From assembly GCA_003990765.1 (NCBI GenBank), contig RBNJ01000068.1, positions 1 to 44,345 of the forward strand: 44,345 nucleotides of DNA. Reading direction: 5' to 3'. This document shows, piece after piece, positions 865-36,528 of this stretch. A program made the translations under genes and the position numbers. Numbering within the stretch: position 1 is the first letter of the stretch; the number at the start of each line of letters is the position of its first letter. The notes beneath the pieces are model-generated. The model was not told the origin of the DNA, searched no databases, and saw nothing but the letters and a program-made list of their open reading frames with translations. This stretch comes from Jimgerdemannia flammicorona. Its lineage: Eukaryota.

Positions 865-920
865 AACCAACAAGAAGGGAAGGAGCCCCCACAAGAGAAG
901 GCTGCTTCCCGCTCACCCAA

Positions 921-2141: not shown

Positions 2142-2355
2142 ACAATTCTGTTCACTCTGTCTGTGTCGCCTCCGCTGGAGATACGACAGACATTTCACTC
2201 GGAACTCAAGAAAGCCAACAACATTGGAACCAGACTCAAGCCCATCTACATGACAGACATTGTTACTAAGAAATTGCCTCGGATTACAAGTAATACTATT
2301 TCCGATGGGTTCGAACCCCCAGCCGCGACTATGGGAGCCCTTGCCCGAGACAAGG

Positions 2356-3672: not shown

Positions 3673-3699
3673 AAGTACCACCCATCAGCTGTGAGAATT

Positions 3700-4644: not shown

Positions 4645-4761
4645 ATAGATTATGAGCTTCTTTCTATATATAATACTTTACACAGTTCTGACATACAGGA
4701 GATTCAGCTCAGCCAAGGTCATATTATGTTTCAGAGACTTGGCTAGGGCACATGCTCTCTT

Positions 4762-4812
<51 letters not shown>

Positions 4813-7455
4813 TACCTCCTCATTGCCAATATTATTCCCTTTAAAATGAACAGAAGATGAGCAAAACATATACAACATGAGCTTTATTCTATCATACAAC
4901 TGTATACAATACTTTACACAGTTCTGATATATCTCAAAGATTTAGCTCAGTCAAGGTTGTGTTCTGCTTCAGAGACTCAGTAGGATATATACTCTCTTGC
5001 TACTAATATCATTCTCTTTAAAATTGAACAGGGAATGAGCGAAAATGTACAGATCATGAGCTTTATTCCATCACATAGCAGTATATAATGTTTTACATAA
5101 TTCTGACATACCTCTGAGAATCAGCTCAGTTAAGGTTGTGTTCTACTTTAAAGACTCAATTAGGGTATATACCACTTCATTATCAATGCTATTCACTTTA
5201 AAAATAAACAAAGAATGAGTGAAAACATACAGATCATAAGCTTCATTCCATCATGTAGCTGTACATAATGCTTTACACAGTTCTGATATACCTCAAAGAT
5301 TCAGCTCTGTTAAGATCATATTCTGCTTCAGAGACTCAGTAGGTATATACCCTCTCATCACTCATGTCATTCCTTTTAAAATTGAACAGGAGATGAGCAA
5401 AAATGTACAGATCGCAAGCTTCATTCTATCATATAGCAGCATACAATATTTCACACAGTTCTGACATACCTCTGAGAATCAGCTTGGTTAAGGTCATGTT
5501 CTGCTTCAAAGACTCAGTTAGGGTGTGTGCCACTTTATCACCAATACTATTCTCTTTAAAAATAAACAGAAAATGAGTGAAAATGTACAAATTATGAGCA
5601 GCTATATACAATGCTTCACACAGTTCTAATATACCTCAGAGATTCAGCTCAGTCAAGGTAGTGTTCTACTTCAGAGGCTCAGCTAGGACACAGTATCATT
5701 CCCATTAAACTCTGCCTTAGAGACTCGGCTAGAGTGCATGCCCCTTGTTGCTAATACTATTCCTAGAGGAGATGAGTGAAAACACACAGATTGTGAGCTC
5801 TATTCCATCATACAGCTGTATACAATGCTTCAAGTAGTTCTGATATATCTCTGAGATTTAGCTCAAATTCTGCTTCAGATACTTGGCTAGAGCACATGCC
5901 CCTCATCACTAATGCTATTCTCATAAGAGATAAGTGAAAATACACAGATCATAAACTTCATTCCATTATATAGTTCTGACATACCTCTAAGATTCAGCTC
6001 ATGTTCTACTTCAGATACTTGGCTAGGGTGTATGCCCCTCATCACTAATGCTATTTTCTTTAAAAATAAACAGGGAATGAGTGAAAACACACAGATTGTA
6101 AGTTTCATTCCATCATATAGCTATATACAATGCTTCATACAGTTCTGATATACCTTGGAGATTCAGCTCAGTCAAAGTCATGTTCTGCTTCAGAGACTTA
6201 GTAGGATATATGTATACCCTCTTACTGCCAATGTCATTCTCTTTAAAATTGAACAGAGAGTGAGTGAAAATGTACAGATTATGAGCTTTATTCCATCATA
6301 TAGCAATACAATGTTTTACATAGTTCTGATATGTATGTCTCTGAGAATCAGCTTGGTCAAGGTCATATTCTACTTCAGAGACTTGGTTAGAGTATATACT
6401 ACTTCATTGTCAATACTATTTCCTTTAAAAATAAACAGGAGATGAGTAAAAATGCACAGATCATGAGCTTTATTCCATCATACAGCTGCACATAATACTT
6501 TACACAGTTCTGATATACCTCAAAGATTCAGCTCAGTCAAGGTCATATTCTGCTTCAGAGACTCAATAGGATACATACCCTCTTGCCATCAATGTCATTC
6601 CCTTTAAAATTGAACAGAGAATGAGTGAAAATATACAGATTGTAAGCTTCATTCCATCACACAGCAGTACACAATGTTTCATACAGTTTGACATACCTCT
6701 GAGAATCAGCTTGGTCAAGGTCATGTTCTGCTTCAGAGACTCAGTTAGGGTGCATGCTACTTCATTACCAATGTTATTCACTTTAAAAATAAACAGGAGA
6801 TGAGTAAAAATATACAGATCATAAGCTTCATTTCATTATGCAGCTGTACACAATGCTTTATATGGTTCTGATATACCTCAGAGATTCAGCTCAGTCAAGG
6901 TTATGTTCTACTTCAGAGGCTTGGCTAAGATATGTACTCCTCACTGCTAGTGTTATTCTTATTAAAATCTACTTTAGAGACTTAGCTAGGGCACATGTCC
7001 CTTGTCACTAATACTATTCCCATAAAAGATGAGAGAAAATGTACAGATCATGAGCTTTATTCCATTATGCAGCTATATACAATGCTTCATATAGTTCTGA
7101 TATACCTCCGAGATTCAGCTTATATTCTGCTTCAGATACTTGGCTAGGGTATATGCCCCTCATTACTAATGCTATTCCCATAGAAGATGAGTGAAAACAC
7201 ATAGATCATAAGCTCTATTCCATCATGCAGCTGCACACAACATACTTCACACAGTTCTGACATACCTCTGAGATTCAGCTCATGTTCTGCTTCAGATACT
7301 TGACTAGGATATACATATACCCTCTTATTGCCAATGTTATAACTTAAAAATAAATCAGAGATGAGGGAAAATGCATAGATCATGAGCTTCTTTCTATCTT
7401 ACAGTTGCACACAATGCTTCACATATGATATACCTTTGAGATTCAGTTTGGTAAA
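4645..7455 (-). pseudogene. LRR exon-intron tandem array 1 (about 16-18 units of ~178 bp), RI/NLRC3-type LRR
   Basis: Minus-strand repeats translate as N.IGDE.A..L.ESLKQN.TLT.L.LR. Each is bounded by TTTTAAAG acceptor and GTATGT/GTATAT donor sequences. Confidence 0.88.
4763..4809 (-). mobile_element. Poly(A)-only retroinsertion with degenerate ~15-bp TSD inside an LRR exon
   Basis: The T-run is flanked by ACATGCTCTCTTGTT and ACATACCTCCTCATT, two decayed copies of the same exon segment. Confidence 0.6.
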
Positions 7456-7484
7456 CCCTTTAAAATTTCTGAATTCCATTTCTC

Positions 7485-7537
<53 letters not shown>

Positions 7538-7599
7538 GTCACTTGGACTTGTCCTTTATTTCATCCATCTATCCTATATAAATACAACAAACCCACCCC

Positions 7600-10500
7600 C
7601 TATCCAATCCCCCTAGGGGGGCCCCTCCCCCCTACCCCTTCTTGATGAAACACTACTCTATCGAATATAATTCTCACCCTCCCACTACTCTGTTCACATA
7701 TCCTTGCCACCAAACTATGCTGCCACTCTCCTGAAGGACCCCAACCTATCCACCATCCAGTCAACAGATCCCCCAACAGCTCCTCCCACCTTATAACCTT
7801 CTCCTGTAGGCTCATCTGCTACCCCTCCTCAAATACAAATAGCCAATGTCCTACCAGACCCACCCAAACTGCTAACACCCACCTGACAGTGAGCCAACTA
7901 TCATCCACCCCCCCCACTAGCCAAGATCTCAAGTCTTCCCAGCAATCCCCTTCACCTACCAGCCTGTGCTCCACACCTAGTCTATTCCCTATTTCAATCC
8001 AAAAGTCCCCCAAAACCTCACACTCTCCCAGCCAATGTTCCGGCATCTGCACCAAACCCCCAGCTTGCCCTATGTTGTAACACTCCTTATAGTCGAAACA
8101 GCCACCATCCACCAGATGCCTGGTGCAGAAATTCAGCATGACATTCCTCTGCAGTATTCACCACCACACCACCCAGAACTTGGGGGGAAGCCACCGCCAC
8201 ACCTCAGCACTCCAAGATCAGATATCTGCCCAGTCCCACTCCTCGCTGATCCTGACTGCCTGCCAACCACTCGGCCAAAGGTCCCAGCCAAGACCCTGCT
8301 GACACTCTACTCCATCCCCAATATCAAAAGCAATAAGTAGAGTACCCTCCAGAAGCAGTCTATTCCATTGCTACATATGAGGACCCCACAATACCTCCCC
8401 CTCATTGCTCTGCCAGTGCAGACCAATTCTGTACACTCCATCGACCACTCCCCACCAAAAGCCCTTAAATCATAGCTGCCGAATTCCATTGAGCCCTACT
8501 AAAGAGAGTAGATCTCCTGAGGACCCTTAGGGGGAGGTTCTCATCTCCCACACCTTCTGCATCAGAAGTACCCAACCCCCTCCCTGTAGTTCAGCTGCTC
8601 TCTTCAACCACCAGGCTTGCAAGCAGTGCAATCTCTTAGAGAAATCCACAAGACCAAGACCTCTCCTATCCACCAGTGTCGCAAGAGTATCTCAACTGAT
8701 CTGGGACCTCCTCCCTGCCCAAATCCAATCCCTAGCCACCTTTGTCAGCCTCTTCACCACCCAAGCTGGGAAGTCTAGGTGGTATGCCACATACTATAGC
8801 TTGGGGAACCAGTATGTATTCAGAATTGATACCTGCTCAGCTAGAGAGATATGGTGGCCTCCCCAACCTCAAAGGGCCTCCCCCCAAGTAGCCACCCTGC
8901 TCTCCCACCACACTTGTGGCAAGACGGAACCATATATAGAGAGGAAGATGCCCAGATACTGTACCACCTCACCAGTAGGGACAATTGTTCCAATGATGTC
9001 CCCACCCACCTGTCCATTCTCTAGCACTATAGTCTCACACTTATGCCAGTTGAGCTTTGCCCCAGAGTGTACCTCATACCATTCCACCATCTCCCTAAGT
9101 GCCTCAACATCTGCTACAGACCCAAGACCAACCACCATATCATCCACAAAGGCCCCCACCTTCCACACTATGCCATAGATAGAGAGCCCCACTACCTTCT
9201 GGTGAATCCTATCCATCAATGGTTCTAATGAGAGAGCATAAAGAATAGGGGACAAGGGGTCCCCCTGAGGAACCCCTCTTCTCAAGGTAAATGCCTGACT
9301 CTGGTGACCATTACACATCAGTGCCACCTGACTACCCTCAAGCAGATTCACCATAGAAGCCCAAAATCCAGGAGGAATTCCAATATGATCCAACATCTTG
9401 CCCAGCCAAACCTGCTGGACCTGGTCATAGGCCTTCTCCTGGTCCAAAAAGACCAACCTTCCATCCAGGCTGCAAGCTCAGGCCTCTTCAATGACACCAT
9501 ATACCCAAGCAGTCCCATCTCTTATAAGCCTGCCTCCAACAAAGCCCCACTGCTCCTCCCCCAACACCCATTGGGCAACCTTCTGCAGCCTTATAACAAC
9601 CATCTTAATTACCATCTTCCTGTCCATGTCTAAAAGTATGATTGGTCACCAGTTCTTCCAGTTTTCTCTCCCCCCCTTGTCTTTGTACAATAAAGCAACC
9701 AGCCCGAGGTCCTGCTCTCCAACCCACTCACCACTCTGAAGAATATGATCACAGAGAGCAGTCATCTCCCCCAGAATGCTGGAGACCTTGACCATCTTCT
9801 TCCAGAAGTCCCACAGTAATCCATCCTCCCCTGGTGCTGTTCCAGTTTTAGTTGCTGCAAGGACACTCTGGACCTCCTCACCTCACACCAGCAAGGCCAA
9901 GTCATCCAGTCCAGCCACCTGCAGCAGTCTCCATTCCCCTAATGCATCTTCAATAGCTGCCTCATCAGCACCCCCTTCATCCTCACTCCACAAACCCTGC
10001 CATCTCTCTTTCAAAACCTCTAGGATTTGTTGTGTGCTGTGTACCATGTCCCCATCAGTATTGAGGACTCCATCCTACCAATGTCTCACCCTCCTAGCAT
10101 TGAGCAGATGGGATAAATATCTAGTAGGCTGCTCACCCTCCTCAAGCCCCTGCCACCATAGCCTAGCAGCCATACCTCACATATGCACCTCCTCCTCTTC
10201 TCTCAGCACCTGTTACAGTTCCAATATCTCCAATTTAATCTGTGCTAACCTTCAATCCTCCACCCCATCAGAAGTAAGCAAACCTGCCCAATCCATTTGC
10301 AATCTTCTCAGCCTGCTGGAAGCATACCTTGTGTGCTTCCTCTTCTATCTCCCAGCTTCTCTCCCAGCCTCTCCCCAATAGACCCTCATAGTCTCTTTCA
10401 ATCTCATCTACTGGACACCCACTGACAAACCCTCACACCTCCAGTGAGAAACTTTTGCCTGAATGTCCTCTACCCATGAATCCCACAACCCCTTTTCAGC

Positions 10501-11259
10501 CAGCAGGGAGGAGTTGAGGCACCAATGTCCAGGTCCATCTCTACTCCCCCCAAACTGCCCCTGTCCTAACAGTCCCCAGTGATCAGACCATGGGTACCAT
10601 TCCACCTCCAATATCTTCCAGACATCAGACCCCCAGTATTCTGCCATCAGAATCCAGTCAATCCTTGTACCCAAGCCATTCACCCAATGCATGTAGACCC
10701 TGGAGTTGCCCCATTATGTTCTACCCATATCTCCTAAGGAGCTCAGCCTCTCCACCTCCTCCCATGTATCCAGGCCTCCACTTCTCCCTCCTGCACTCCT
10801 CCCACCATCAGTGCAGTCCAGGTGCTGATCCCAAACCATATTAAAGTCCCCCCCAATCACATCAACCCCTTCTGCTAAGAGAACACCCTCCTCTAGCAGC
10901 TCCTCAATCCATACAATCCTCTCACCCCTAACTGCAGGGCAGTAGCAAGAGCCAACCCTCACTGACTCCCACCCTGGCCACTGTCAATCTCTCCAGACCA
11001 AGCAGTCACCCCAGCTCCTGATTCCCTCCAAGTCACCTCTACCCTTCCTAACCAGAATCGCCACTTTTCCAAACCAAGCAGTAGCCCCACCCCATTCCTT
11101 AGTCCACTTCATTCAATCATCCTCATCCTCACACTGAACATCCTATAGTAAAAAGAGATCAGCCTCCAATTCCTTGAGCCAAGTAAAAATGTTCTTATAC
11201 TGTCCAGAACCCCTCAACCCATTTACATTCAAAGAGAAAATATTAGTTGTACTGTTCAT
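7600..11259 (-). pseudogene. LINE ORF2: AP endonuclease, reverse transcriptase, C-terminal Cys/His motif
   Basis: MNSTTNIFSLNVNGLRG, IGGDFN, RIDWIL, WSDH, FLDQEKAYD, RRGVPQGDPLSP, AFVDD, CFDYKEC..PEHWLGEC. Many stops. Confidence 0.93.
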
Positions 11260-11292
11260 AAGGAATAATATTAAAAAAAGTAATCCCATCCT

Positions 11293-13309
11293 CTATAAGT
11301 CCACATCCAGCTCCTCCTGCACCAAGTCCAATTTATGTTCAGCAGCTAGTTCCCTTTCCCCAGCTTCTTGTGCCTCCAACCCTCACAGAAGTTCTACCAT
11401 CACCTCATCTTCCCTCTTCTCAAATTCCTCTCGATACTCTAAACAGGCCTCCCTCCAGAGCTACAAACCATGTCGCTCAGCCCAGCAGTATGTTGCCTGC
11501 TCACCTGCAGCCACCACCAGCTCTGCCTTCCTTACCTCATTGACTTCATATCCCTCCTCCTTTAAGAGGATCACAAGAATCTCCCCCCTCAGTGCCTCCA
11601 CTACTCCCTCACCATGCAGAATCCACTCCCAGTGCTCCTCAGGCATAACCTGTAGGTCCACTTCTCCCAATGCATCAGCCACAAGGGTATCCATCACCTT
11701 GCTCATCCACAGCAAGTTTCCTACCTCCTTCCCTCCTGGAGTCCCTGGCCATCCTGCATCCAATATCGTGGTGTCAGCACCCACACTGGCAGCCTCATCC
11801 CACTCCTCCTCAGGGACATCCACTAGCTCATCCTTGCCAGCTACCACCACCTGGCCCCCTTTTGCCACATCAGGGACCCCAAAATGCACTCACTGGGCCC
11901 CCTTCATCAGCACATCCTCTGACATTCTTCTCTTTGCAGCTGGGTCCCTTCTGATCAGAGGAGGGGGGGTGGAGTTCAATTCTGGCTCCCAGACCTCAAA
12001 GGTGCTATCAGTAAAAGGGTTCTTGCTCAGCACCTCCCCATCTCCTTCCTTGCCTACCTCCACCTCCCCTACCCCTTTACTAGCCCAGATACTGGCTTCG
12101 ACACCCCCAGACACCTCAGCCCCAACTGCCATCTTCTTTGTCTCAACTATCATACTCGCCAGTAGCTCCCTCTGCCTCCTACACCCCTGTGCCTGCTCCC
12201 ATGCCCTTTGTCCATGTGGATACACTTCCCCTCCACAACCTCCAGATGCATCAACTCCTCATACATCTTTCAGGCCCTTGCCCTCCTCTCCATAGCTCCA
12301 CTCATCTCCTCCAGTACCTCTAACAAGTCCTCCTCCTCCTCCTCACTCCTCTTTACCCTCAACACCCTACAGATGAATGCCCCCCATATCAGCACAGAAG
12401 ACCAGCCACTTGCCTTCCCCATGGCCTCCTTTCCTGCCAGCCAAATCCTGACATCAATGTCACCCATCCTGATTGTTGTTCCCTTCCACATCTAAAAGCC
12501 AATATCTACCATGTCACTATACTCAATCATCACCTCCTCTACCCTCTTCCTAGTCTCCTCCTTAGTCACTGTGGGCACCCCCTTTACCAGAAGCTGCACC
12601 ACTCTGGGGTCTCATCACAAGCACTACACCATGGAGACCATCACCTCTCCAACCACAACTCCAGTCTTCAGTACCTCATCCAGTGGACTGGCCTCCTCAA
12701 AGCCCACCTCGACCCCCTCCAGACCCTTCAAGAACTTCACTGAGGCTGCCCCAGCCACCTGCTTTGAAACAAGCCCCAGAACCATCCTTGCTGTTACCAC
12801 CAAGCCCCAGAAGCACAAGGTTACCACAAACTCTGAGATTGACTTCTTGAGCAACGGAGTCACCGCCAGTCCCATTACACCATCTGCCAGGTCCCCCTTC
12901 CACATTGGGAACCCCTGCTCTACCTGACAATCAGCCATCACATCTCTTTTTTTTTTCTGATTCCCCATCATACTCCCATCAACAGTCACATCCCCAGCCA
13001 CAGCTCCTCCAGCCCCTACGTCTGCACTCCCAGCTAGAGTACTGCCCCCTCTCCCAAGACTCATCTTGCCCTTCCCCTCAGCAGCACCAGCTCTATTACC
13101 AGCTGGCCACCCACTCTCCTTAACTTTGTCTGTGAAGCTTGGGAGACCAGATCTTCCCCCATTGCCACTGGTTACTGGTCTCTCTCTAGAGCCTTCTCCA
13201 TTCTTTGATCCTCCGAAGGCCCCCATCCTCAGGTCATAACCCCTTCCCACCTGCTGCCAGTTGAAGACCCTAGATCCACCTGACCTAGTACATGCACCTA
13301 TATGGTCAT
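11293..13309 (-). pseudogene. LINE ORF1 (Gly/Glu-rich), boundaries approximate
   Basis: ORF fragments 12624..13250, 12270..12491, 11890..12225 and 11461..11889 lie upstream of ORF2 and match fragments in copy B (VKFLKGLEGVEVGFEE, GKEVGNLLWM). Confidence 0.8.
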
Positions 13310-13585
13310 TGCTCTCTATGTTGCTAGTTGCTTTTTACCAAAAAACATTGTTGAAAGTATTGTCTGAGTCTTATATCATCTGAATGTTACTGGTGAAAGG
13401 TGTGTATGCCATTTCTCATTCTTGTTCATCTCTTATCCTCTATTATTAATTGTTATTTATTCTTTATATTTTATTCAATTATTCAACTATATTATATCCT
13501 GTTGTCTATTAATTGTCTATCTGTATTCATCTCTATTATATATATGTATTTAATTCTGTCTCTCATTTCCTCATTCATCTCTCTA

Positions 13586-14630
13586 TCATTGTCTATTTTC
13601 TTTCTTAGTCTCATCTTCTTCCTCAGTCCTATTTTCTTTCTCAGTCTCATCTTCTTCCTTGGTCTCATTTTCTTCCTCTGTCTCTCTCTCATTGCTTTTA
13701 CTGGAGATTATAACTTCTTCTTCTATCATACTTTGACTTTTATATCTCATCTCAATAAAATACATCTTTCTTTTATTTCTGCATTTATTCTGTCTTGCCC
13801 TTTCCTCTACTCTCTGTCTTCTTGTCTCTACATTCTTCTCTCTTATTTCTGCATTCTTCTCAAATACTTTTATGTGCCATAATTCCAAATTATAGGTAAG
13901 CTGATCATGTTTTCTCTTTCTATTCTTCTCTCCTTCTATCTTTTTACCTATCAACTTCTCTAAGTTTTGCACTGCCTTAGTCAACTCATGAATAGATTCA
14001 GCAATATTCTGATCAGCCTTTTTCTTTGATATATCTTCATTTGTGATTGTTACACCTGTTGAATCTACCAGTAGATGTGGGAAGAGATTTGTAAGATATC
14101 TGAAGATATCATGTATAGTATCATACCATTCTCAGCACAATGATTCATTGCCTGATTCCTTATTATGCTTTCAAATAAGATAATAGGTCTCAAGTATATA
14201 GTATACTTTGCACTGGACACTGTCCTTATTGTGAGTAAGTCTCTCTTGCTGTATCTACTGCATATATAGCTTGTCCTTAGTTATTTGATACTTTATAAAG
14301 TTTATCCAAATATGTTCAAGAAACCTATGAAGCAGTTCTTTAGGCTATAGCTTTGTTTCAACAGATCAAAGATTAGATATATTAGAGATAATGAATGATA
14401 TTGGTCAAAGCATATTCTCTACAGATTCATCAGCATCACTACTATTTCTTTCTTCCTCATCTTTTACATCTAGATCATCTGGAGCATATATTTTTTATAA
14501 GGCTTCAACTGGATTGTATGATATAGTAGTGATGATTACAGATGTGGTGGAGGGGGTAGCTCTAGGTTTCTTAGATAATGTAACCTTTACTTTTTTCTTT
14601 CCCTTATCTCTTGATTGCTTTTGTCCTTAA
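13586..14630 (-). pseudogene. Probable Harbinger accessory (Myb/SANT-like) protein with charged C-terminus
   Basis: Acidic stretch, KWYDTIHDIF motif and a K/E/R-rich coiled-coil tail. Its position opposite the transposase fits Harbinger organisation; the domain call is inferred. Confidence 0.5.
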
Positions 14631-14994
14631 TGTAGTGTTTGAGTTGGTTTGCTTTCATTCTTATTAATGGTAATAGCATTCAATTCTGTTCCTAAGGAGG
14701 CAGTGGTGGAGATAACTGACCCATCATCTGTCCCAGACCAAGAAAGTGCTGGTATATATTCAGATTCAAATATAAACCTGGTTTTGTACTACATAGCTGA
14801 TTTCTGTATTTGTGCTGAATTTTGTATATCAGAATGTAGATATTGTACTGAATTATAGAAGTCTTATTAAGTCATATCATACTTAATTGTAGTAGTGAGC
14901 ATTATATTGTAAGTCAGAACATAAACTAGAACTCTGCAACCTAATCTGACCTATATATAATTGATGCAATCCAGCAGAATACTCAATCCAAAAA

Positions 14995-15430
14995 AAAAAG
15001 CTGACCTTGTAGCTCACCTGATCCTTTACATAAATATAAATAACTCCACTAATACTTATCAGAATTTAATAATTTTCCTATACTGGATTTGCCATGTAAA
15101 GGTAAATCCAACAAGCTAAAGTACATATAAATTGGGTGTATATTTATGGAATTATTAACATTATCTGTGGTTGGGTCAGGGATAGGTTTATTATCAGGTT
15201 CAGTATGATACAGAGAGACAGAGAATAAATCCATCTCTGACCCACCTACATATACAAATGTTAATAACTCTATAAATATACATCTGATTTAGATATACTT
15301 TAGCTTATTGAATTCACCTTTATATGGCAAATCCAGCACAATAAAAATTATTAAATTCTGATATATATTCTTGGAGTTATTCATGTTTATATGAAGCTTC
15401 AGATATGTTACAGGGTCAGATATTTTTTGC
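14995..15430. repeat. Foldback inverted repeat between the Harbinger ORFs
   Basis: CTGGATTTGCCATGTAAAGGTAAATCCAACAAGCTAAAGTA (~15085) is the reverse complement of TACTTTAGCTTATTGAATTCACCTTTATATGGCAAATCCAG (~15296-15337). Confidence 0.8.
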
Positions 15431-16114
15431 TGCTGTCAAAATCAAATCTCTGACCAGTACTATTTGTATATATAACAAATAGCTCAAATTTAGAGTCTGA
15501 TCTGACATAGCCCAATTACCAATATATTTTAACTTCAGCACAATGCTAACATTTTTCTAACTTATAATATGACACCAACAATACCAACTTCAACAATTCA
15601 GCACAACAGCCATATTTTGACTTATATTATAATACCTGCAATACCAACCTTTATAATTTATTTCAATATCCATATTCTGACTTATAGTATAACACTCATA
15701 ATACTGATCTCTATAATTCAATATAACATCCATATTCTGATATACATATATATAGTCTCTCACAATTCAGTACAATATTCATATTCTACCTTATAGTACT
15801 TCTGCAATTTAGTATGATCTCTATATTCTTTTACAGACTCTGCAATTTGGAAATCTCTGTTGTGTGAACTTCTACAATTCAGGATAATATCAATATTCTG
15901 ACCTATATGGACTTTCACAATTCAGTACAATCCTGACTTCAACAGCACATCACTATATTTAGACCTAACTTACAATATAACATCTTATTCTAACTTACTA
16001 TGACTACTGGTGTGACAATCTGATACCTCAACTTTTTAAAAAATTTCAGCCCTCATATAAGTAGCAGCAAGTCTATCAGTAATAGCTATAATAGACACCA
16101 TTATTGAAAATAAA

Positions 16115-17327
16115 ATGAGTTCTTCTGATAGTGATGTTGATGATAATGATAATAATAATAATAATAATAATGACAAAACTACTCTAGAAGAGATAATAGA
16201 TATTTATTACTTAGCAAATGAGGTATTTGCAAGTGCAGATTTATCTCAATCTTAATATAGTACTCCTTGAAGACATAGAATACCTATCTCTTTGGACTGA
16301 GTAAATAATGTGCTTTCATACTATGAAGATAGAGAATGTCTTAAAGTTCTGAGAATAAAGCAGAGTACATATGATAAGTTGGTATTAAAGTTGATGTCAT
16401 ATTCTATATTCCAATCAAACAAACAGCAAACTCCAGTATATATTCAGGTTGCAGTATTACTCAAGCAACTTGACAGACTAATGATATGTATATACTGAAT
16501 TATCAATACTTTTTGGTTGTATAGAAGGATCTATTGAAACCTTTTATACAAGAACTATAACAGTAATTATTGATAACCTGAGGGCAATATATATTCAGTG
16601 GCCATGTAGAAAACAATATCAAGAAGTTCATAAAGGATTTCAGAAAATTGCAGGCTTTCTGAGTATTATTGATGCAATTGATAATACTCATATTTTTTTT
16701 CAAAATGTACCAATAGACAATAAGATATCTTACTGGTCAAGGAAGATAAAGTATGTACTGACAGTATAGGCAACAGTTGACCATCTTGCAAATTTTACCA
16801 GCTTTGTAATTGGATAATTAGTATTATGTTATGATAAAAAGATTTTTAATGAATTATTTCTTTCTAAAAACTATACAAAATATTTTATTAATAATAACTA
16901 TCTTCTTATAGATAATGACTACAAACCTTGTACAATATATATGATATATTCTTATCCAAAGCCATTATATAGAGATCTTAAAAATGTATTCAACAAGCAT
17001 CTATCTAAAACTCATATTGTTGTTGAGCATGCTTTTGGTAGACTGAAGATATGTTTTCCACTCTTGAGAAGTCTTCATACATGAAATCCCATCAAAGCTA
17101 TAAATCTCATCTATGCAGCTATGATATTATACAACTTTATTCAAGTCTCAAATGACATCATATTACCATCTAGAGAAGAAAATAAAGGAGATAAAGAAAA
17201 TGAAGATAAAGACAAAAATGGTCAATATGAAGTACAAAGAAATATATTATTTCAAGAACTGGAGAATGATGGTGAGGGTGACCAGAAAAGGAATATAATT
17301 ATGGTAATGTTACTTACTTCACAATAG
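16115..17327 (+). pseudogene. PIF/Harbinger (HARBI1-like, DDE_Tnp_4) transposase
   Basis: IIDAIDNTHI (consensus GAIDGTHI), ATVDH, YLLIDNDY (consensus GDSGY), FNKHLSKTHIVVEHAFGRLK, AAMILYNF. Contains stops and a frameshift. Confidence 0.9.
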
Positions 17328-20300
17328 TAGAGAAGAAGATGAAAGTCACACTATTGAAATAGAATATAGACAGATGATAGGATAAAATCTGGATGATGAG
17401 CAATAAATAGACAATAGAATATAATATAAATAGCTAACAGAATGGAATATGGATGATAAAATATAGATGAACAATGGATATAATATATAGATAGACAATT
17501 GTAGAGAATGTGACAGATCTCTGCTAAACCAACTAAATCTGCCAAACTTGCCAAATAAATACCTGCCCCTGTGGAACTAATATCCACCACACCTTTCCCT
17601 GCAAAGCCAACACCCACTACTGATGAACCAACATTTATCTCTATCAAACCAATATTCATCTTCACTGAACTGATACTTGCTCCTAAAAGAAAGCCTGATA
17701 CCACCAACTCTGAAACACCTACCACAAGACTGAGTAATATTGTGAACTTATAAAAGTAATGTTGTGTAAATATAAGAGCAAGATCTGTCTGACAGAATAG
17801 AAAGATCCACCCTACCTTGACTGAGCTGAATTATGAAAGTATGTAAAGCATTTTGTACAGCTGCATGACAGAATAAGGCTTACAATCTGTGTATTTTCAT
17901 TTATCCCCTGTTCAATTTAAAGGGAATGATATTGATGATGAGAGGACATGCATGCTAGCTGAGCCTCTGAAGTAGAACATGGCCTTGACTGAGCTAAATC
18001 TTGAAAGTACATATGTCAGAACTGTTGTAAAACATTGTGTACAGCTGCATGATAGAATGAAGCTCACAATCTGTGTATTTTTGCTCATTCTCTATTTATT
18101 TTAAAGGGAAAAGCATTGACTAAGCTAAATTTTGAAGATATATCAAAACTGTATAAAGTATTATATACAGCTGTATGATAACAATTTGTGCATTTTTACT
18201 CATCTCCTATTCATTTTAAAGGAAATAATATTGGTAGTAACAGGTATGTACCCTAATTAAGTCTCTGAAGCAGAACACAACATTGACTAAAATAATTCTT
18301 AGAGATATATCAGAACTGTGTGAAGCATTGTATGCAGCTGCATGATGGAATATAGTTCACAATCTGTGAGTTTTTACTCATTCTCTATTCATTTTAAAGA
18401 AAATGATATTGGTGATAAAGGGGCATGTACTCTAGCTGAGTCTCTGAAGTAGAACATGACCTTGACCAAGCTGATTCTCAGAGGCATATCATAACTGTGT
18501 GAAATATTGTATACTGCTGTATAATGGAATAAAGCTCATGATCTATATATTTTTGCTCACTCTCTGTTTAATTTTAAAAAGAATGATATTAGTAATGAGA
18601 GGGTATGTGCCCTACTGAGTCTCTGAAGCAGAACACAACCTTGACTGAGCTAAATCTTTGAGGTATATCAGAACTGTGTGAAGCATTGTATACAGCTATA
18701 TGATGGAATGAAGCTCATGATCTGTGCATTTTCACTCATTCTCTGTTTATTTTTAAAGAGAATAGCATTGGTGACAAGGGGCATGCACTCTAGCTGAGTA
18801 TCTGAAGCAGAATATGAGCTGAATCTTAGAGATATGTCAGAACTATATTAAGCATTGTATGCAGCTGCATGATGGAATTAAGCTTACAATCTGTATATTT
18901 TCTCTCATCTTCTATGAAAATAGCATTAGTGATGAGGGGCATATGTTCTAGCCAAGTCTCTAAAGTAAATTTTAATAGGAATGATACTGGTGGTAAAGAG
19001 TACATGCCTTAGCCAAGCCTCTGAAGCAGAATATGATCTTGATTGAGCTGAATCTCCAAGGTATATCATAACTGTATAAAGAATTGTATACAGCTATATG
19101 ATGGAATGAAGCTCATGATCTGTGCATTTTCACTCATCTCCTGTTCATTTTTAAAGTGAATAGTATTGGCAACAAAGTGGCATACACCCTAACTAAGTCT
19201 CTGAAGCAGAACACGACCTTAACCAAGCTATTTCTCAGAGGCATATCAGAACTATATAAAATATTGTATACTGCTATACGATGGAATGAAGCTTATGATC
19301 TGTACATTTTTGCTTATTCTCTGTTTAATTTTAAAGAGAATAATATTGGCAGTGAGAGGGTACATGCCCTACTGAGTCTCTGAAGCAGAACATGACCTTG
19401 ACTGAGCTGAATCTTTGAGGTATATCAGAACTGTATGAAGTATTGTATACAGCTACACAATGGAATAAAGCTTATGATCTGTATATTTTCACTCATCTCC
19501 TGTTCATTTTTAAAGAGAATAGCATTGACAACAAGAGGCATGTACCCTAGCCAAGTATCTGAAGCAGAACACAAGCTGAATCTCAGAGATATGTCAGAAC
19601 TACATGAAGTATTGTATACAGCTATGTGATGGAATAAAACTCATGATCTGTGTGTTTTCTCTCATCTCCTATGGGAATAGCATTAGCAACAAGGGGCATG
19701 TACCCTAGCTAAGTCTCTAAAGTAGATTTAAATGAGAATGACACTGGTAGCAAGAGAGCACATATCTTAGCCAAACCTCTGAAGCAGAACATGACCTTGA
19801 CCAAGCTGATTCTCTGAGGTATATCAGAACTGTATAAAGCATTATGTATAGCTGCATAATGAAATGAAGCTCATAATCTGTGTATTTTTACTCATCTCCT
19901 GTTCATTTTTAAAGTGAATAGCATTAGTGATAAAGTAACATGCACTCTAATCAAGTCTCTGAAGCAGAACATAACCTTGACTGAGCTGATTCTCAGAGGT
20001 ATATTAGAACTGTGTAAAACATTGTATACTGCTGCATGATGGAATGAAGCTTATGATCTGTATATTTTTGCTCATCCCCTGTTCAATTTTAAAGAGAATA
20101 ACATTGACAGCAAGAGGGTATGTACTCTACTGAGTCTCTGAAGCAGAATACAACGTTTACTGAGCTAAATCTTTGAGATATATCAGAACTGTGTGAAGCA
20201 TTGTATACAGCTACATGATGAAATAAAGCTTATGATTTATGCATTTTCACTTATTCTCTGTTCATTTTTAAAGAGAATAGTATTGGTGATGAGAGGCATG

Positions 20301-20774
20301 TACTCTAGCTGAGTATCTGAAGCAGAATATGAGCTGAATCTCAGAGGTATATCAGAAATGTGTGAAGCATTGTGTGCAGCTGTATGATGGAATGAAGCTC
20401 ATAATCTGTGCATTTTCTCTCATCTCCTATAAGAATAGCATTAGTGACAAGGAGCATATACCCTAGCTGAGTCTCTAAAGTAGATTTTAATAGAAATGAT
20501 ACTGGTGGCAAGAGAGCACATGCCTTAGCTGAGCCTCTGAAGCAGAACACAACCTTGATTGAGCTGAATCTCCAAGATATATCACAACTGTGTGAAGCAT
20601 TGTGTGCAGCTGTGTGATGAAATGAAGCTTATAATCTGTATATTTTCACTCATCCCCTGTTTATTTTTAAAGTGAATAGCATTGGTGATGAAGTAGCATA
20701 TGCTTTAACTGAGTCTCTGAAGCAGAACATAACCTTGACCAAGCTAATTCTCAGAGGCATATCAGAACTGTGTG

Positions 20775-21377
20775 TAGTGCTCCGAACGAGTCAATCCGGA
20801 TGGGATTCGGATGGATTCGAATCCCATCCGGATCAACTCAGATGGGATTCGAATCAACCATTGTTTTGATTTCCAAATTAGACAATTAAATGTTTACATC
20901 AATAACTCGATTAATAATCATCCAAATTTGATGATCTTGGTGTCATTTTAAAGCCCTTAATAAGGCCTTTCTAATTTTACCAAGAAAATTAAAATCGGAT
21001 TACGCGTTGCTGAGATATTAAGGAAAATGTTCTATTTGACGAAATTTCCAAAATCGGTAAATCAAAGAATTTCCAAAATCGGCGATTCAGACGTTTTCCT
21101 TCATAACTCAGCAACGCATAATCGGATTTCAATGTTCGTGGTATCATTAGATAGGCCTTATTAAGGGCTTTCAAATAACACCAAGATCATCAAATTTGGA
21201 TGATTATTCATTGAGTTATTGATGTAAACATTTAATTGTCTAATTTAGAAATCAAAACAATGGTTGATTCGAATCCATCTGGATGGGATTCGAATCCCAT
21301 CCAAGTTGATCCGGATGGGATTCAATCTGAATCAATCCGAATCCAATCCGGATTAAATTGACTCGTTAGGAGCACTA
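20775..21377. mobile_element. Young hAT-type MITE (603 bp, palindromic)
   Basis: TIR TAGTGCTCCGAACGAGTCAAT / ATTGACTCGTTAGGAGCACTA. Perfect 8-bp TSD ACTGTGTG at 20767-20774 and 21378-21385. Confidence 0.95.
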
Positions 21378-21719
21378 ACTGTGTGAAACATTATATTCTG
21401 CTGCATGATGAAATGAAGCTTGTAATCTGTATATTTTCGCTCATCCCCTGCTCAATTTTAAAGGGAATGACATTGGCAGCAAGAGGGTATGTGCTCTACT
21501 GAGTCTCTGAAGCAGAATATGACCTTGACTGAGCTGAATCTTTGAGGTATATCAGAACTGTATAAAGCATTGTGTGTAGTTATATGATGGAATAAAGCTC
21601 ATGATCTGTGTTTTGCTCATCTCCTGTTTATTTTAAAGGGAATAGTATTGGCAATAAAGGGGCATATACCCTAGCCAAGTCTCTGAAGCATAATATGACC
21701 TTGGCCAAGCTGAATCTTC

Positions 21720-21998
21720 TATCCCTTTGACTGTTTTGTACCTATATTTAGAGGTAAGATTTTAAAAGTTTATAACTTTTAAAATCATAATAGCTTTTAA
21801 AAAAAATTTTACCAATAATATTTTATATAATAATTCTACCTTTGGTAAAAATTTTATAAAAAAAAAAAAAATTGTTTTTAAACAAATTGAGATATATTTT
21901 TAACAGAAAAACAATATTTCAAAAAATCATTTTTTTCAAACTTTAGTTTGTCTGCTAAATGATTTTAAAAGATGATCTTATCTATAGATAAAGGGATA
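21720..21998. mobile_element. Small AT-rich TIR element inserted at an LRR splice donor
   Basis: Ends TATCCCTTT / AAAGGGATA. LRR unit sequence continues on both sides. Confidence 0.65.
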
Positions 21999-22210
21999 TA
22001 TCAGAACTGTATAAAGTATTGTATATAGAAAGGAGCTTATGATCTGTGCATTTCACTCATCTCTTATTCATTTTAAAGATAATAACATTGGTACTGAGAG
22101 GGCACATGGCCTAGTTAAGTCTCTTTTTTTTTTTTTTTTTTTTTTTTTATAGTCACTTGGACTCTATCTTTATTACCAGTCTATGAATAAGTATACAGTA
22201 TTACTACCCA

Positions 22211-25200
22211 CTATCCAATCCCCATAGAGGAGCCCCTCCTCACCTCCTTATGAACAAAGATCACTCTCTCACTCACTACTCCAACTCTCCCCCCACTCTG
22301 ACCACAGATTTTTTCCACTAAGCGGTACCTCTGACCACCCTGTAGTCCCCAACCAAGCCACTAGCCTGTTAAGGTGTCTTCTATAAGACTATGCCACTGC
22401 AACACACAGTCCCCCAAGCCCTGTCTCTTCTTATTCTCAAAAACAAATAGCCAGTAACTGGCCAGCCCCACTCAAATGGCCAAAGCCCAGCCTAAGATAA
22501 GCTACTCCTTTCCTATCCCCCCTACCAATCAATCCCTCAAGTCCTCCCACCACCCCCATACTTCACCACCCCTACCTCTTACGCCCAAGTGATCCCCAAT
22601 GGCCTGCCAAAAGTCCCCCAGCACCTCACACTCTCCTAGCCAATGTTCCAGTATCTGTATATATCCCCCTTCCTACCCTTCATTATAGTATTCCTCACAG
22701 TCAAAGCAACCCCCTATGATAAGGTGACCCAAGCAGAAGTTGAGCATTATATGCCACCTCAGTATGTGCCATCAGACCACCCAATACTTTGGTGATATCC
22801 ACTTTCTCACTGCTGCACTTCAGGTCCAAATACCATACCAGTTCCACTCTTCTCCAATTCCAACTCCTTGCCAACTACTAGGCTACAGATCCTGGCCTGG
22901 TCTCCTTTGGTATTCTATTCCATCACCAATATCAAACTCAATTAAAGGTATGCTACTCAGTAGTATATAATCCCATCTCTACATTACCAGGTCCCAAGCC
23001 TCCTCTCCTTCATTCTCTTGCCAACAAATTCCAATGAGATGTACCCCCTCTGCAATCCCCCACCAGAATCCTTTATATCACAATTGTTCAGTATTTCAAA
23101 GTCCAACCAATGAAAGAAGATTGCCAGTTGAGCCTCTTAGTGATGCCCATCTCTCTCAGACCTTCTGTAGCAGAGAAACCCAACCACCTCCTCTCAACTC
23201 CACTGCTCTCTTTAGCCACCATACTCTCAAGCAGTGTAGTTATTTGGGAAAGTCAACTAGCCTAAGGTTGCCCCTTGCCACCATAAAGGACAAGGTCTCC
23301 CAACCAATCTGACTCCTTCTGCCAGCCCAGATCTATCTCTTTGCCAGCTTCATCAATCTCTTCACCACCCAGACCAGGAAGTCCAGATGATAAGCCAGAT
23401 ACCACAGCTTCAGCAGCCAATAGACATTTAAAATTGAGACACACCCTGTCAGAGAAAAGTGTCTTCCCCCTCAATCCTGCAGAGCCTCCTCCCAGATTCC
23501 AATTCTCTGCTCCCACCAAAGCCTGAGCAGAACTGACCCATAGACTGATAAATAGATACCCAAGTATTGCACCATCTCACCAGTGGAGACAATTGTTCCT
23601 ATGATCTCTCCTCCCACCAGGCCATTGTCTAGCACCATTGTTTCACACTTATGCTAATTAAGCTTAGCCCCAGAGTTCTTCTCATATCACTCCACTGTCT
23701 TCTTGAGTTCCTTGACATCAGTAATCGATTTCAGACTGACCACCATATCATCTGCAAAGGCCCCAACTTTCCACCCAATTCCAAAAACAGAGAGCCCCAC
23801 TATCTTCCACCTAATTCTGTCTATTAGGGGTTTCAGGGAAAGGATATACAGAATAGGGGACAGTGGGTCCCCCTGGGGCACCCCCCTACCCAGGGGGAAT
23901 GCTATCCCTCTATATCCATTACACATGAGTGCAGCCCTACTTCCTTCCAGTAGGCTGACCATTGTTGACTGGAACTGGTGTGGAACCCCAGTTCTATCCA
24001 ATACTTTTGCCAGCCAGACTTGTCGCACCTGGTCATAAGCCTTCTCCTGGTCCAAGAAGACTAGTTGCCCATCTAGTCCACATGCCCTTGCCCCTTCAAT
24101 AACTCCATATACCCAGGCTGTATCATCTCTAATGAGCTGACCACTCACAAATCCCCTCTGCTCAGCACTCATGACTTACTGGGTCACCTTCTGTAGCCTT
24201 GCAACCACCACCTTAGTCACCAACTTTCTGTCCATATCTAGCAACATTATCAGCTGCCAGTTCTTCCAATCCTCTTACCTTCCTTTGTGCTTGTAAAGCA
24301 GTGTCACCAGCCCAAGATCCTGCTCCCCCACTCATCTCTCTATCTATAGGATAAAATAACACAATACTGTCATCTCTCCCATCACCCCTGGGACTCCCAC
24401 CATTTGCTTCCAGAAGTCCCAGGGGCAGACCATCCTCCTCAGATGCCATACCTGGTGTTGTTGCAGCAAGAACCTGATGGATCTCATCCTCCTGTACAGG
24501 TATCATCAAGTTACCTAGCCCCTCTACTCATGGTGGATGCCAATCTTCCAATGTTTGGTCTATGGTGGCAGTATCTGCCCCACCCTCCTCCTTACTCCAC
24601 AATCCACTCCATCACTCCTTCAATGATCCAAGAATGTCCTGTACACTATGCACTAGTATACCATCAGAGTCAAGCACCCCTTCCCACCATTGCTGTATCC
24701 TTCTCACCTGCAGGGCTCTCATAAGAAACTTGGATAGTCTCTCCCCTTTTTCCAGATCCTGTCAACAAAGCTGTGCCACCAAGCTTTGTACCCTTGCTTC
24801 TTCCTCTTTCCACTATACCTATTATAGTTCTCCAACCTCTATCTTTGCTCTCATTAATCTCCAATCTTCTTCTCCCTCCAACATTGCCAGCCTCACTCAC
24901 TCCTCCAGGAGTCTAGCCAATCTAGTAGAAGCCCAATGCACTCTTTACCTTCTCTGCTTCCCTGCCTCCTTGCCAGCCTCACTCCAGTAGATCTTGGTCA
25001 TTGCTTTTATCCTCATCTACTAAATACCAACTGAGGCACCTTTCTGCTACCAGTTCTCCACCCTCAGCTGATTGTCCTTAGCCCACTCATCCCACTGGGC
25101 CTTATCATCTAATAAAGAGGAATTTAGGTGCCAATGTCCAGACCCATCCCTACTCCCCCCAAAGTGCCCCTGTCCCAAAAGCCCTCAGTAATTCGATCAT

Positions 25201-25868
25201 GGATACTATTCCACCTCCAGCAACTTCCAAACATCTAGACCCCAGTAACTGGTCATCAGAATCCAGTTGATTCTTATCTCCAGGCCCCCTGCCCGATGCA
25301 TGTAAACCCTCCTATCTCCCCAGTACTCCATACCAGCATCTACCAGAGCACTTAGTCTTTCTACTTCCTCCCATACTGCCAGCCCTCCACTCCTGCTCTC
25401 AGCACCCCATCCTCCATCTGTTCTATCCATCAGTATATTCCAAACCATATTGAAATCTCCTCCAAGCACATCCACCCCAGCCTCTACAAGGATCCCACTC
25501 TCCTGGAGACCCTTCACCCAATCTACATACTCTTTCTATACTGCAGGGCAGTAATAGGAGCCAACTATAACTGGCTCCCAGCCTGTACAAATCCACTCAC
25601 TGCAGACCAGTCTCTCCCCCCAGCTCCTCATACCTCTTTTCTCCCCTCTACCTTTCTGAACCAGAATTCCAACCTTGCTCTTCTAAATTACCACACCTCC
25701 TTATTCCTTTGTCCATTCCATCCTATTGGAATCATCCTCACACCTGACATCCTGCAAGAGGAAGAGATCGGCCTCCAATCCTTTCAGCCAAGTAAAAATG
25801 TTCCTATATCTAGCAGTACCCCATAACCCATTCACATTCAAAGAAAAAATGTTGATTGTACTATTCAT
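22211..25868 (-). pseudogene. LINE ORF2 (APE-RT)
   Basis: SLNVNGL, LGGDFN, QRGFVSG, FLDQEKAYD, GRGVPQGDPLSP, AFADD. Confidence 0.93.
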
Positions 25869-25898
25869 AATGAAATATGATGTATTAACAGTTGATCC

Positions 25899-27858
25899 CT
25901 ATTGCTCCATATTCATCTCCTCCTGTGCCATATCTAGATTATGTTCCACAGTCACCTCCTCTTCTTCAGCCCTCTGAGCCTCCAATCCAGTCAACAGTTT
26001 GTTCATCTCCCCATCTGCCTTCTCCTCAAACTCCTCCCAGTACTTGAGGCAGGCCTCCTGCCAGAGCTGTAATCCATGACATTTGTTCCAGCAGTATTCA
26101 GCTCTCTCCCCAGTAACAACTGCCAACTCTGCCTCCCACTCCTTATCCACCTCATACCCTTCCTTCTCCAGATATACTGCAAGAATTTCCACCTTCAATG
26201 CCATCATCACTCCATCCCCCTGTAGTATCTATACCCAATGCTCATCACTCATTACTCTCAAGTTCACCTCCCCCAACTCTTCTGCCACCAGGTTATTCAT
26301 CATCTGATACATCCAAAGTAGGTTCCCCACCTCCTTCCCTCTAGGAGTTGCCAGCCTCCCTCTATCTAGCATTGTGGTATCAGCCCCAGTGCTCACAGAC
26401 TCATCCCATATCTCTGGGATATCCACCAGTTCCTCCTCTCTGGCTGCCACCCCTTGTTCTCTGTTTGCCACCTCCAGAACTCTGAATTTCACCCACTGGG
26501 CCCCCTGCATTGGCACATCCTCCACCACCCTGTTTCAGGAAGCTGGGCCTTGCCTGATAAGAGAAGTAGGGATAGGGGAGTCCTTCCAGTCCACCTCCCA
26601 GACCTCCAGTGTACTATCAGCATATGGGTCATTATCAGTCACCTTCTTATTCTCCCCTGTCTCCTTTCTGGCCTTTCCACTCCCCTTGCTGGCCTAGAAC
26701 TCACTTTGGCCCCCCCCATGCCCTTCATCTTGCTTGCATCCTCCAGTGGTCTACCTTCTAGCTTAGCCAGCAGATCCTTCTGTCTCTTACACCTCTGAGC
26801 CCTTTCCCACTACTTCTTGTCTACTTGAATCCACTTTCTATCTACCACCTCCAAGTGTGTCAACTTCACAAAATCCTTCCAAGCCTTCACTCACCACTCC
26901 ACAGCACTACTCAGCTCTTCTAGTACTTCTAATAAATCCTCTTTCTCCTCCTCACTTCCCTTCACCCTCATCACCTTATATAAGATTGCTCTCCAGACCA
27001 TCACCAAAGGCCAGTTCATTATCTTCCTGGTAGCTTCTTTTCCAGCTAGCTGAATCTGATATCCACTATCTCTCTATATTCTGCCATGACTTCCTCAACT
27101 CTCCTTCTCATCTCCACCACCATCACTGTGGGCACTCCTTTCACCAGCAGTTGGACTACTCTGGGATCCCATTTCAGGTAACATGCCATCAGAACACACA
27201 CCTCCCCAACTACCAATCCAATCTTCAGCACCTCCTCTAGTGGCTCAGTCTCCTCAAAACCCACCTCCACTCCTTCCAGTCCCTTCAAAAACTTCACTGA
27301 CACAGCCCCTACCACCTGCTTAACAATAAGCCCTAGTACTATCTTCACTATTACTACTAAGCCTCAGAAGTACAGTATAATTACAAATACTGAGATTGAT
27401 TTTTTGAATAACAGAGCCACCACCAAGTCCATCATGCCATCCACCAAATCTCCTTATCTTCCAAACCTCAACTGCTCAGCCTTACCATTAGCTATTATAT
27501 CTGGATTTTTTTCCAGATTGGCAGTCCCATCACTATCAGCAGTCACACTCCCCCCCACAGCTCCACTGTCCCCCCTTCCAAGAGCTACTCCCCCATACAC
27601 TGCCACCTTCTCAGTCTCCTTGCTCTTTCTTAGCCAGCCCTCTAGCTCTGATGTCTGCTGTCTCTCCTTCACTATCTCCACAAAGCTCACCCTCCCAGAC
27701 CCTTGACCTCCACCACTATCTCTACCTCTTCTATGTCTACCTGCCAGCAGCCCCCTCATGCCCCTCCCCAGGCCCAGGCCTCACTCCACCTACTGTCAGT
27801 CAAAAGCACTTGGGCCACCCTACCTAGTATATACCTCAGATTACCTGTTGGTCGTCAT
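25899..27858 (-). pseudogene. LINE ORF1, boundaries approximate
   Basis: Fragments 27454..27759, 27046..27348, 26229..26528 and 25899..26210 are homologous to copy A ORF1. Confidence 0.8.
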
Positions 27859-28139
27859 ATTGTTAGTCTCTTTTCTCCAAAAACAATGTTGTAAGAGCTT
27901 TCCAAAGATTGTGTAACCTGAATAATATTAGAGAAAGATGTGCTGGCCTAGTCAAGTTTCTGAAGCAGAATATGATCTTGACCTAAATCTCAAATGTATG
28001 TTAGAACTATATGAAGACTATATAATAGAATGAAGTTTACATCTATATTTGCTTATCTCAATAGTAGTAGCCATAAGGGAGCATATACTTGTGAGCTGAA
28101 TCATAATTCTGATCTTAAATTAGAAGCCAGTAACTAAGA

Positions 28140-28575: not shown

Positions 28576-28709
28576 CAGCTAGGATTAGAGTTCTATCTAA
28601 AATTAGAAGGTGCTCATAATGAAAATGGAAGGTGCTTAAGATAAAAATGGATGAGATCATTTTCAGATTAAACTTTGAGCAGCTCTAAAGAGATAAAAAT
28701 AGGCAAACC

Positions 28710-36472: not shown

Positions 36473-36528
<56 letters not shown>

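Follow-up and report, generated by a model that had tools for sequence, protein, structure and literature searches.

The stretch analysed here, hereafter the window, is positions 1 to 44,345 of contig RBNJ01000068.1 (assembly GCA_003990765.1) of Jimgerdemannia flammicorona, and its central feature is a tandem array in which each unit joins one leucine-rich repeat (LRR) exon to an intron. Tandem Repeats Finder placed arrays of period 179 at 18181-20428 and 4812-6922, and nhmmer, with a profile built from six clean units, found 44 unit pieces in the window, 26 on the + strand and 18 on the - strand. Twenty-five of the + strand pieces lie within 17809-22124 and one further piece lies at 27920-28057, beyond an inserted long interspersed nuclear element (LINE2), while the 18 - strand pieces lie within 4645-7456 and form an inverted array. 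The array thus has these parts:

17809..22124, + strand: forward arm, array of LRR exon plus intron, 25 pieces, higher-order period 758 bp.
27919..28120, + strand: continuation of the forward arm past LINE2, with one unit and a fragment after it.
4645..7456, - strand: reverse arm, inverted copy of the array, 18 pieces, higher-order period ~1257 bp.

An earlier note on this DNA had described about 23 repeats at 17800-22124, and 23 exon-bearing pieces are counted there. Its forward array therefore stands, but its extent was incomplete, as the inverted - strand array, the higher-order period, the insertions and the resumption at 27919 had been missed.

When aligned in register, the 179-bp unit consists of an 84-nt exon followed by an intron of ~95 nt, and the exon is laid out as 2 nt, 27 codons and 1 nt, giving phase 1 at both ends. 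This alignment agrees with the cassette anatomy proposed earlier, namely an 84-nt phase-1 RI-type LRR exon duplicated together with its intron. Introns of the array start with GTATGT or GTATAT and end with TTTTAAAG. The donor GT is retained in 22 of 35 scorable units (AT in 10 and GC in 3), and the acceptor AG in 17 of 19. Consensus sequences of the unit types translate as N[SD]IGD[EK]..A..LAESLKQN[MT]TLT[EK]L[NI]L[RQ]. RI-type repeats take the form LxxLxLxxNxIGDxGAxxLAxxLxxNxxL, and the unit-type consensuses have this form. Their length, 28 codons including the split codon, also falls within the 28-29 residues of RI-type (RNI-like, Pfam LRR_6) repeats. Judged from their translations, the exons encode 28-residue RI-type LRRs. 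Single exons of 27-28 aa span two halves of the Pfam repeat, and none of seven scored above the Pfam cut-off (one reached E 0.36); a profile search of PDB returned the leiomodin/tropomodulin LRR at E 1e-4.

Units are further organized in blocks. In the forward arm, the order of unit types is x, ?, x, ?, (A B C D E) x3, A, B and a terminal F-type unit, and the 758-bp period, with copies at 18997, 19755 and 20513, comprises five unit types, E-A-B-C-D. The order in the reverse arm is x, (C C D E A B A B) x2 and an F-type unit, with a block of ~1257 bp. The F-type terminal unit is common to both arm ends and has an exon reading ..SLKHNMTLA.LNLL and an intron with an 11-nt deletion. Unequal exchange in unit register, which the earlier note had suspected, is visible in the comparison of E-A-B-C-D with C-C-D-E-A-B-A-B.

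Exons of types A and E are 84 nt long, whereas the three other types of the block carry fixed lesions. The same base is absent from all eight B copies, giving an 83-nt exon whose frameshift reaches a TGA inside the conserved exon stretch CTGAAG. In all seven C copies, 1-nt and 10-nt deletions are present, and the intron is truncated and without an acceptor. All five D copies retain only the first 52-54 nt of the exon, which are joined directly to the final few bases of the intron. Because these lesions of three types are common to every copy in both arms, amplification must have followed inactivation, and amplification of units that were already broken indicates satellite-like drift, not selected diversification of a receptor. 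The earlier reading of a diversifying LRR receptor system was therefore right about the cassettes and about unit exchange, but the amplification seen here came after the units had been inactivated. A multi-monomer period, shared lesions and equal divergence of exons and introns are all found, as in an amplified pseudogene or a higher-order satellite.

The two arms are inverted with respect to each other, share 83-89% identity and lay ~4.4 kb apart before the insertion of another LINE (LINE1), as measured with LINE1 removed. An assembly artefact was considered as the source of the inverted arms and rejected, given that the arms are ~15% diverged and differ in unit order. The inverted geometry, together with a PIF/Harbinger DDE_Tnp_4 fragment at 16818-17081 (+) in the spacer between the arms, might suggest a DNA transposon, foldback-like or of another kind, that had picked up an LRR fragment, with the arms as its long, internally repetitive terminal inverted repeats and the Harbinger fragment as its coding part. 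However, unit order differs between the arms, and their outer ends are not termini, since one is cut by a Ty3 long terminal repeat (LTR) and the other fades at ~28120. Moreover, no target-site duplication or shared terminal motif was found, the window holds no second copy of such an element, and PIF/Harbinger elements normally have short terminal repeats. We consider this origin of the arms very unlikely.

Decay of the array is equal in exons and introns. For copies of the same type (93 pairs), identity is 0.843 in exons and 0.843 in introns, as expected from the earlier remark that introns are as alike as exons. Between types (268 pairs), identities are 0.745 for exons and 0.810 for introns. 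Differences at codon positions 1, 2 and 3 amount to 0.158, 0.111 and 0.206, and transitions outnumber transversions by 2058 to 131 (15.7:1). Per-copy loss of inferred ancestral C is 53-65% in CpG, 31-32% in CpA, 16-32% in CpC and 3-6% in CpT. The arrays have a CpG observed/expected (o/e) ratio of 0.03-0.06 and the LINEs one of 0.03-0.07, against 0.96 around an intact gene at 38000-40000 and 1.33 in a miniature inverted-repeat transposable element (MITE). Exons that are open and 81-84 nt long number 7 of 29 scorable, and the earlier description of this copy as decayed is borne out. The pattern is that of unconstrained DNA undergoing cytosine deamination, with cytosine methylation as its presumed cause.

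Introns that are at least as conserved as exons could also mean that the introns host small structured RNAs, for example small nucleolar RNAs (snoRNAs), like the tandem arrays of snoRNA host genes, and that the exons are mere carriers. No Rfam family reached its gathering score anywhere in the window, and the sole match at E<=1 in 18300-20780 was a long non-coding RNA at 16.9 bits against a gathering score of 70. Six introns were folded and proved no more stable than shuffled sequences (z from -0.22 to +1.63), the consensus fold had an energy of -5.9 kcal/mol, and double changes occurred in 2 of its 20 pairs. Introns of 63-80 nt in the relatives described below also seem too short for a snoRNA. 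Intron-hosted RNA was rejected on the results of the Rfam scan, the folding and the consensus fold, and it is hardly credible as an explanation of the array.

Taken from its sequence, the region is very probably a non-functional, amplified relic of the repeat domain of an RI-type (RNI-like) LRR gene. In the live ancestor, each 28-residue LRR would have had an 84-nt phase-1 exon to itself, with a short intron behind it. As the 179-bp units were nearly identical, misaligned recombination or slippage during replication would have copied them as DNA, in unit register. A near-uniform array of cassettes before the lesions is the simplest history, on the basis of the few fixed purine/pyrimidine differences between types. 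A five-unit block would then have gained its lesions, with a 1-nt deletion in B, deletions of 1 nt and 10 nt and acceptor loss in C, and a deletion of ~115 nt in D that left a 54-nt exon stub. The broken block would next have been amplified into higher-order repeats, and the whole array duplicated in inverted orientation, after which the arms would have diverged separately in unit order. Later on, the locus would have behaved as a silenced repeat, in which C-to-T transitions nearly erased CpG, presumably through cytosine methylation, and which received two LINEs, a poly(A) retro-insert, a Ty3 element and a MITE. The order of these events is our inference. Seen in the data are the anatomy of the array, lesions shared by all copies, decay that is equal in exons and introns, the spectrum of mutations and the insertions, as well as live relatives elsewhere with the same exon design. 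The 5' part of the parent gene may have been lost.

Several observations weigh against a relic of this kind. Seven exons are still open, one B copy at 6155-6238 is back in frame through a 4-nt insertion, and a few units could in principle still be spliced into some transcript. In addition, the greater divergence of exons than of introns between types could be a trace of diversifying selection that acted before the gene died. Most of this exon excess is gone after correction for the GC content of exons (0.303 vs 0.238 at C/G sites).

Relatives were sought with a profile, A2, made of stop-free read-through open reading frames (ORFs) of 41-93 aa, each consisting of one exon with intron-derived residues. 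The profile retrieved 63 proteins, and 62 of them carry Pfam LRR_6 (PF13516). The top match (P0001) is a 1825-aa protein with Death, NACHT and LRR_6 domains, whose score is summed over 25 generic units. The best named matches per unit were a MYND-LRR protein of J. flammicorona (P0005) and RNI-like proteins of Mortierella and Entomortierella.

A scan of metagenome contigs with the same profile gave 209 matching stretches, five of which passed tblastn (L001-L005). One of them, L003, repeats hits and exon sequences of part of L002, so that four distinct loci remain. These loci have 84-nt exons flanked by ag| and by |gtatgt, |gtacgt or |gtaagt, introns of 63-100 nt and exon translations that look intact, such as NNIGGEGAHALAEVLKQNTTLTKLDLG; the 28-residue length also recurs in all of L001-L005. 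Their CpG o/e is 0.93-1.08 (L001, L002, L004 and L005). The CpG-retaining relatives for which the earlier note had proposed a search, with the same exon design, thus exist as four distinct loci on metagenome contigs. Their exons are 52-77% identical to the de-decayed consensus of the window, or 69-94% at the purine/pyrimidine level, and they are therefore family members from other organisms. The cassette architecture is hence real and alive elsewhere, in related organisms. A degenerate 36-nt intron pattern matched 11 units of the window and had no match in the metagenome contigs. About 2 kb downstream of the LRR exons of L005, at ~2670-3550, a Ty1/copia-type gag-integrase ORF was noticed by eye in the ORF translations.

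L002 appears to be a whole small gene, with an ATG-initiated exon of ~130 residues (within a 138-aa N-terminal ORF), a 16-nt mini-exon and seven to eight LRR exons, one of which (4182-4265) contains an in-frame TAG. The reverse arm starts with a 24-nt mini-exon behind an acceptor, which resembles the 16-nt first mini-exon of L002, and hence the array probably starts at the start of the LRR domain. Upstream of this arm, a candidate exon at 13589-14131 (-) showed no similarity to the L002 N-terminus (E 4.7) and no Pfam family. Comparison of the sequences upstream of the arms gave one purine-rich local alignment with a score of 59, against a shuffle maximum of 41, which was judged to be low-complexity.

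The N-terminal ORF of L002 gave nothing above the Pfam cut-off, LOH1CR12 being closest at 19.7 bits against a cut-off of 24.7, and its N-terminal exon and neighbours contain no NACHT, NB-ARC, ROC-COR or kinase domain; L002 is the only relative with a 5' part. In the window, 90 of 110 ORFs of >=45 aa were scanned in 13250-17850, 28000-38500 and 39800-44345, and these 90 showed no NACHT, NB-ARC, ROC-COR, kinase or F-box domain nor any other partner; the only matches were the DDE_Tnp_4 fragment and a cyclin fragment. Neither NACHT nor NB-ARC was found in the same gene as the LRR exons when eight long ORFs were considered together with these flanking ORFs and with the N-terminal exon of L002 and its neighbours. 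The NACHT, ROC-COR or kinase partner that had been anticipated thus adjoins neither arm and is not seen in L002.

These data also bear on the possibility that the array is a decayed member of an active, diversifying family of LRR receptors, in which unequal crossover, conversion or exon skipping would reshuffle the cassettes and so vary ligand recognition. It accords with the symmetric 84-nt exons, with the different unit orders of the two arms and with the exon design shared by the CpG-retaining relatives. In L002, exon identity (0.70) is close to intron identity (0.68), unlike in old exons under purifying selection. Moreover, two non-adjacent introns of this gene, 4 and 6 (4426-4488 and 4729-4791), are 94% identical (59 of 63), whereas the exons preceding them are 76% identical (64 of 84) and those following them 70%. 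The introns of L002 are of two classes, in alternating order over the gene's 3' half. Together, the identities hint at duplication or conversion of cassettes in a live gene. However, this intron pair was selected from 21 pairs, and the reshuffling in the window postdates inactivation. Neither the window nor L002 offers a NACHT, ROC-COR or kinase domain. Differences between types are almost all transitions, and a fixed purine/pyrimidine difference occurs in 4 of the 84 columns of the exon and in 2 of the 95 of the intron (Fisher p 0.42), which makes the evidence for diversifying selection between types weak. Variable residues favour the helix side of the repeat (positions 5-14) over the LxxLxL strand, where the earlier note had proposed a test for positive selection. 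Membership of such an active family is quite unlikely in our view, and an amplified relic remains the preferred reading.

Both arms have been invaded and are bordered by mobile elements, and the rest of the window is mostly decayed DNA:

1..4644, + strand: Ty3/gypsy LTR retrotransposon with reverse transcriptase, RNase H and integrase zinc-finger; CpG o/e 0.48.
4763..4809, - strand: poly(A)47 insert in an LRR exon (T47 on the + strand), with similar flanks of ~15 nt.
7489..13408, - strand: LINE1, non-LTR retrotransposon with RVT_1 and poly(A)46 as its tail, between the copies (7476-7488 and 13409-13421) of a 13-nt target-site duplication.
13422..17808, no strand assigned: decayed spacer between the arms, with the DDE_Tnp_4 fragment only.
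20775..21377, no strand assigned: palindromic MITE of 603 bp; 8-bp target-site duplication ACTGTGTG at 20767-20774 and 21378-21385.
21719..21992, no strand assigned: AT-rich insert of 274 bp, which splits the terminal F-type unit between exon and intron.
22125..27918, - strand: LINE2, which interrupts an LRR exon of the forward arm; RVT_1, poly(A)25 tail.

The end of the Ty3 LTR cuts the reverse arm at 4644/4645. In a search with the Ty3 polymerase, the best identities were ~50% and the named matches were mixed (frog, pseudoscorpion, Rhizopus, Dentiscutata and Absidia). The poly(A)47 insert and its ~15-nt flanks are as expected of a 5'-truncated retrotransposition event. LINE1, immediately upstream of the reverse arm's first mini-exon, and LINE2 belong to one family with 71-74% identity, and ~46 nt of exon repeated on both sides of LINE2 may be a long target-site duplication. 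In the LINE bodies (7535-13408 and 22149-27918), C makes up 35-37% and G 13-14% of the + strand (GC skew ~-0.45), so that the sense strand is G-rich and C-poor; there is no matching A/T skew, and the asymmetry is far above that of the LRR arrays. The window has four long pure T runs, at 4763-4809 (47 nt), 7489-7534 (46 nt), 22124-22148 (25 nt) and 36475-36524 (50 nt); two are LINE tails and one, at 4763-4809, is the tail-only insert in the LRR exon.

The MITE is inserted in the intron of an A-type unit. Its undepleted CpG (o/e 1.33), near-perfect palindrome and 8-bp duplication indicate that it is recent. A decayed relative of it (68-70% identity) lies at 28429-28553, and a 14-bp tandem repeat, ATCCGGATTGACCC, at 43958-44051 resembles its subterminal motif. 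Another inverted repeat pair, at 28826-29206 and 29846-30226 (381 nt, 84% identity, 639-nt gap), holds 21- and 31-bp tandem repeats in its arms and is foldback-like or MITE-like.

Two further genes or gene remnants were noticed. Cyclin N- and C-domain matches at 33827-34279 (+; Pfam E 1.7e-8 and 1.2e-4) lie in CpG-depleted, AT-rich DNA, and they are probably another decayed gene fragment. The sole intact-looking gene of the window, at 38524-39816 (-), encodes a multi-pass membrane protein of 408-430 aa with no Pfam family. It has a GC content of ~50% and a CpG o/e of 0.96 amid decayed DNA of 20-30% GC. Its best named relative is F8M41_019400 of Gigaspora margarita (34% identity over 98% of the length), and weaker relatives include a bacterial metagenome-assembled genome. 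This best match, the named LRR and Ty3 matches and short introns of the GTAYGT...CTGAC type, which are characteristic of fungi, together make a Mucoromycota-like fungus the fairly probable host, in keeping with the early-diverging fungus that the earlier note had guessed.

In terms of known systems, the array can be set beside several classes of repeat. It resembles a higher-order-repeat satellite in that a monomer of ~179 bp is arranged in blocks (758 and ~1257 bp), block copies are more alike than neighbouring monomers, and the DNA is without coding constraint, CpG-depleted and invaded by transposons. It differs in that the monomer is a recognisable LRR exon with its intron and that there are ~44 pieces on the contig.

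Among proteins, the units share with animal NOD-like receptors (NLRs) of the NLRC3/NOD class (P0001 and the Acropora NOD2-like P0010) a 28-residue repeat and, nearly, the consensus ..IGDEGA.ALAE.LKQNTTLT.L.L, and NLRC3 and NOD1 carry 84-nt LRR exons. However, no NACHT domain adjoins the arms or occurs in L002, and the similarity is to a generic repeat and points to no particular orthologue. Among Mucoromycota, RNI-like LRR proteins such as P0005 and those of Mortierella alpina (P0003), Entomortierella lignicola (P0021) and, with BACK, Gigaspora rosea (P0033), are the nearest named proteins per unit (P0005 with up to 31.5 bits) and have the same flavour of LRR when compared as proteins, and they probably belong to the broad lineage from which the window comes, although their N-terminal partners, MYND and BACK, were not found here.

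In Ectocarpus, each LRR of the ROCO LRR-GTPases has a 72-nt (24 aa) exon to itself, and pseudogenes are numerous (Zambounis et al. 2012, PMC3341825). As in the window, each LRR has an exon of equal length that keeps the frame, and number and order vary by duplication of exon units; the Ectocarpus families are also clustered and rich in pseudogenes, like the decayed copy here. One LRR per symmetric exon with varying unit order is thus found in both, but here the variation arose in broken units. Differences are also clear in the exon itself, which is of 84 nt (28 aa), RI-type and phase 1 here, and of 72 nt (24 aa) with ROC-COR attached in Ectocarpus. A ROC-COR module with 72-nt type I LRR exons is not seen in our data, and the window's copy is a dead one that was amplified into a higher-order satellite.

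In fungal NLRs, ANK, TPR and WD40 repeats take the place of LRR, and these repeats bear marks of positive selection (PMC9815663). Near-identical tandem units of such NLR or STAND (signal-transducing ATPases that have numerous domains) proteins in Dikarya change in number and order by unequal exchange, as the cassettes would. However, the repeats in Dikarya are of other classes, sit together in a single exon and are linked to NACHT or NB-ARC, whereas here an intron accompanies every repeat and a nucleotide-binding domain is not seen. Soanes and Talbot (2010, PMC2939053) reported no protein combining LRR and NACHT in 49 fungal genomes and described LRR-based receptors as nearly absent in early-diverging fungi. 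Endobacteria of Glomeromycotina and Mortierellaceae have acquired LRR-bearing genes from these fungi by transfer (PMC10507103). The excerpt of a zebrafish NLR paper (PMC4852459) contains nothing on single-LRR exons, and a literature search at the level of titles and abstracts, with supplements outside its scope, found no description of LRR exon plus intron cassettes in fungi.

The locus itself is ordinary, a fragment of a pseudogene that has become a small higher-order satellite within DNA that is silenced and rich in transposons. Judging by its units and by the live loci, some lineage nevertheless builds RI-type LRR domains from cassettes with one exon per repeat and co-duplicating introns, and this lineage is probably that of early-diverging fungi. 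A wider reading, which we think unlikely but worth stating, is that the array is a fossil of a lineage-wide, cassette-built family of RI-type LRR proteins, probably of Mucoromycota, in which repeat number and order were changed by unequal exchange. Such a family would be a fungal counterpart to the brown-algal ROCO receptors and would recognise microbes, endobacteria or hosts; the four metagenome loci would be its live members, and near-identical introns beside diverged exons would result from conversion of, or selection on, cassettes.

A cassette with one exon per repeat makes the number of repeats easy to change without breaking the frame. The value of the locus hence lies in pointing to a live cassette architecture, which is a modest lead. 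Should the live family turn out to be large and variable and to carry signalling domains, it would matter for the question of how partners and pathogens are recognised by fungi outside Dikarya.

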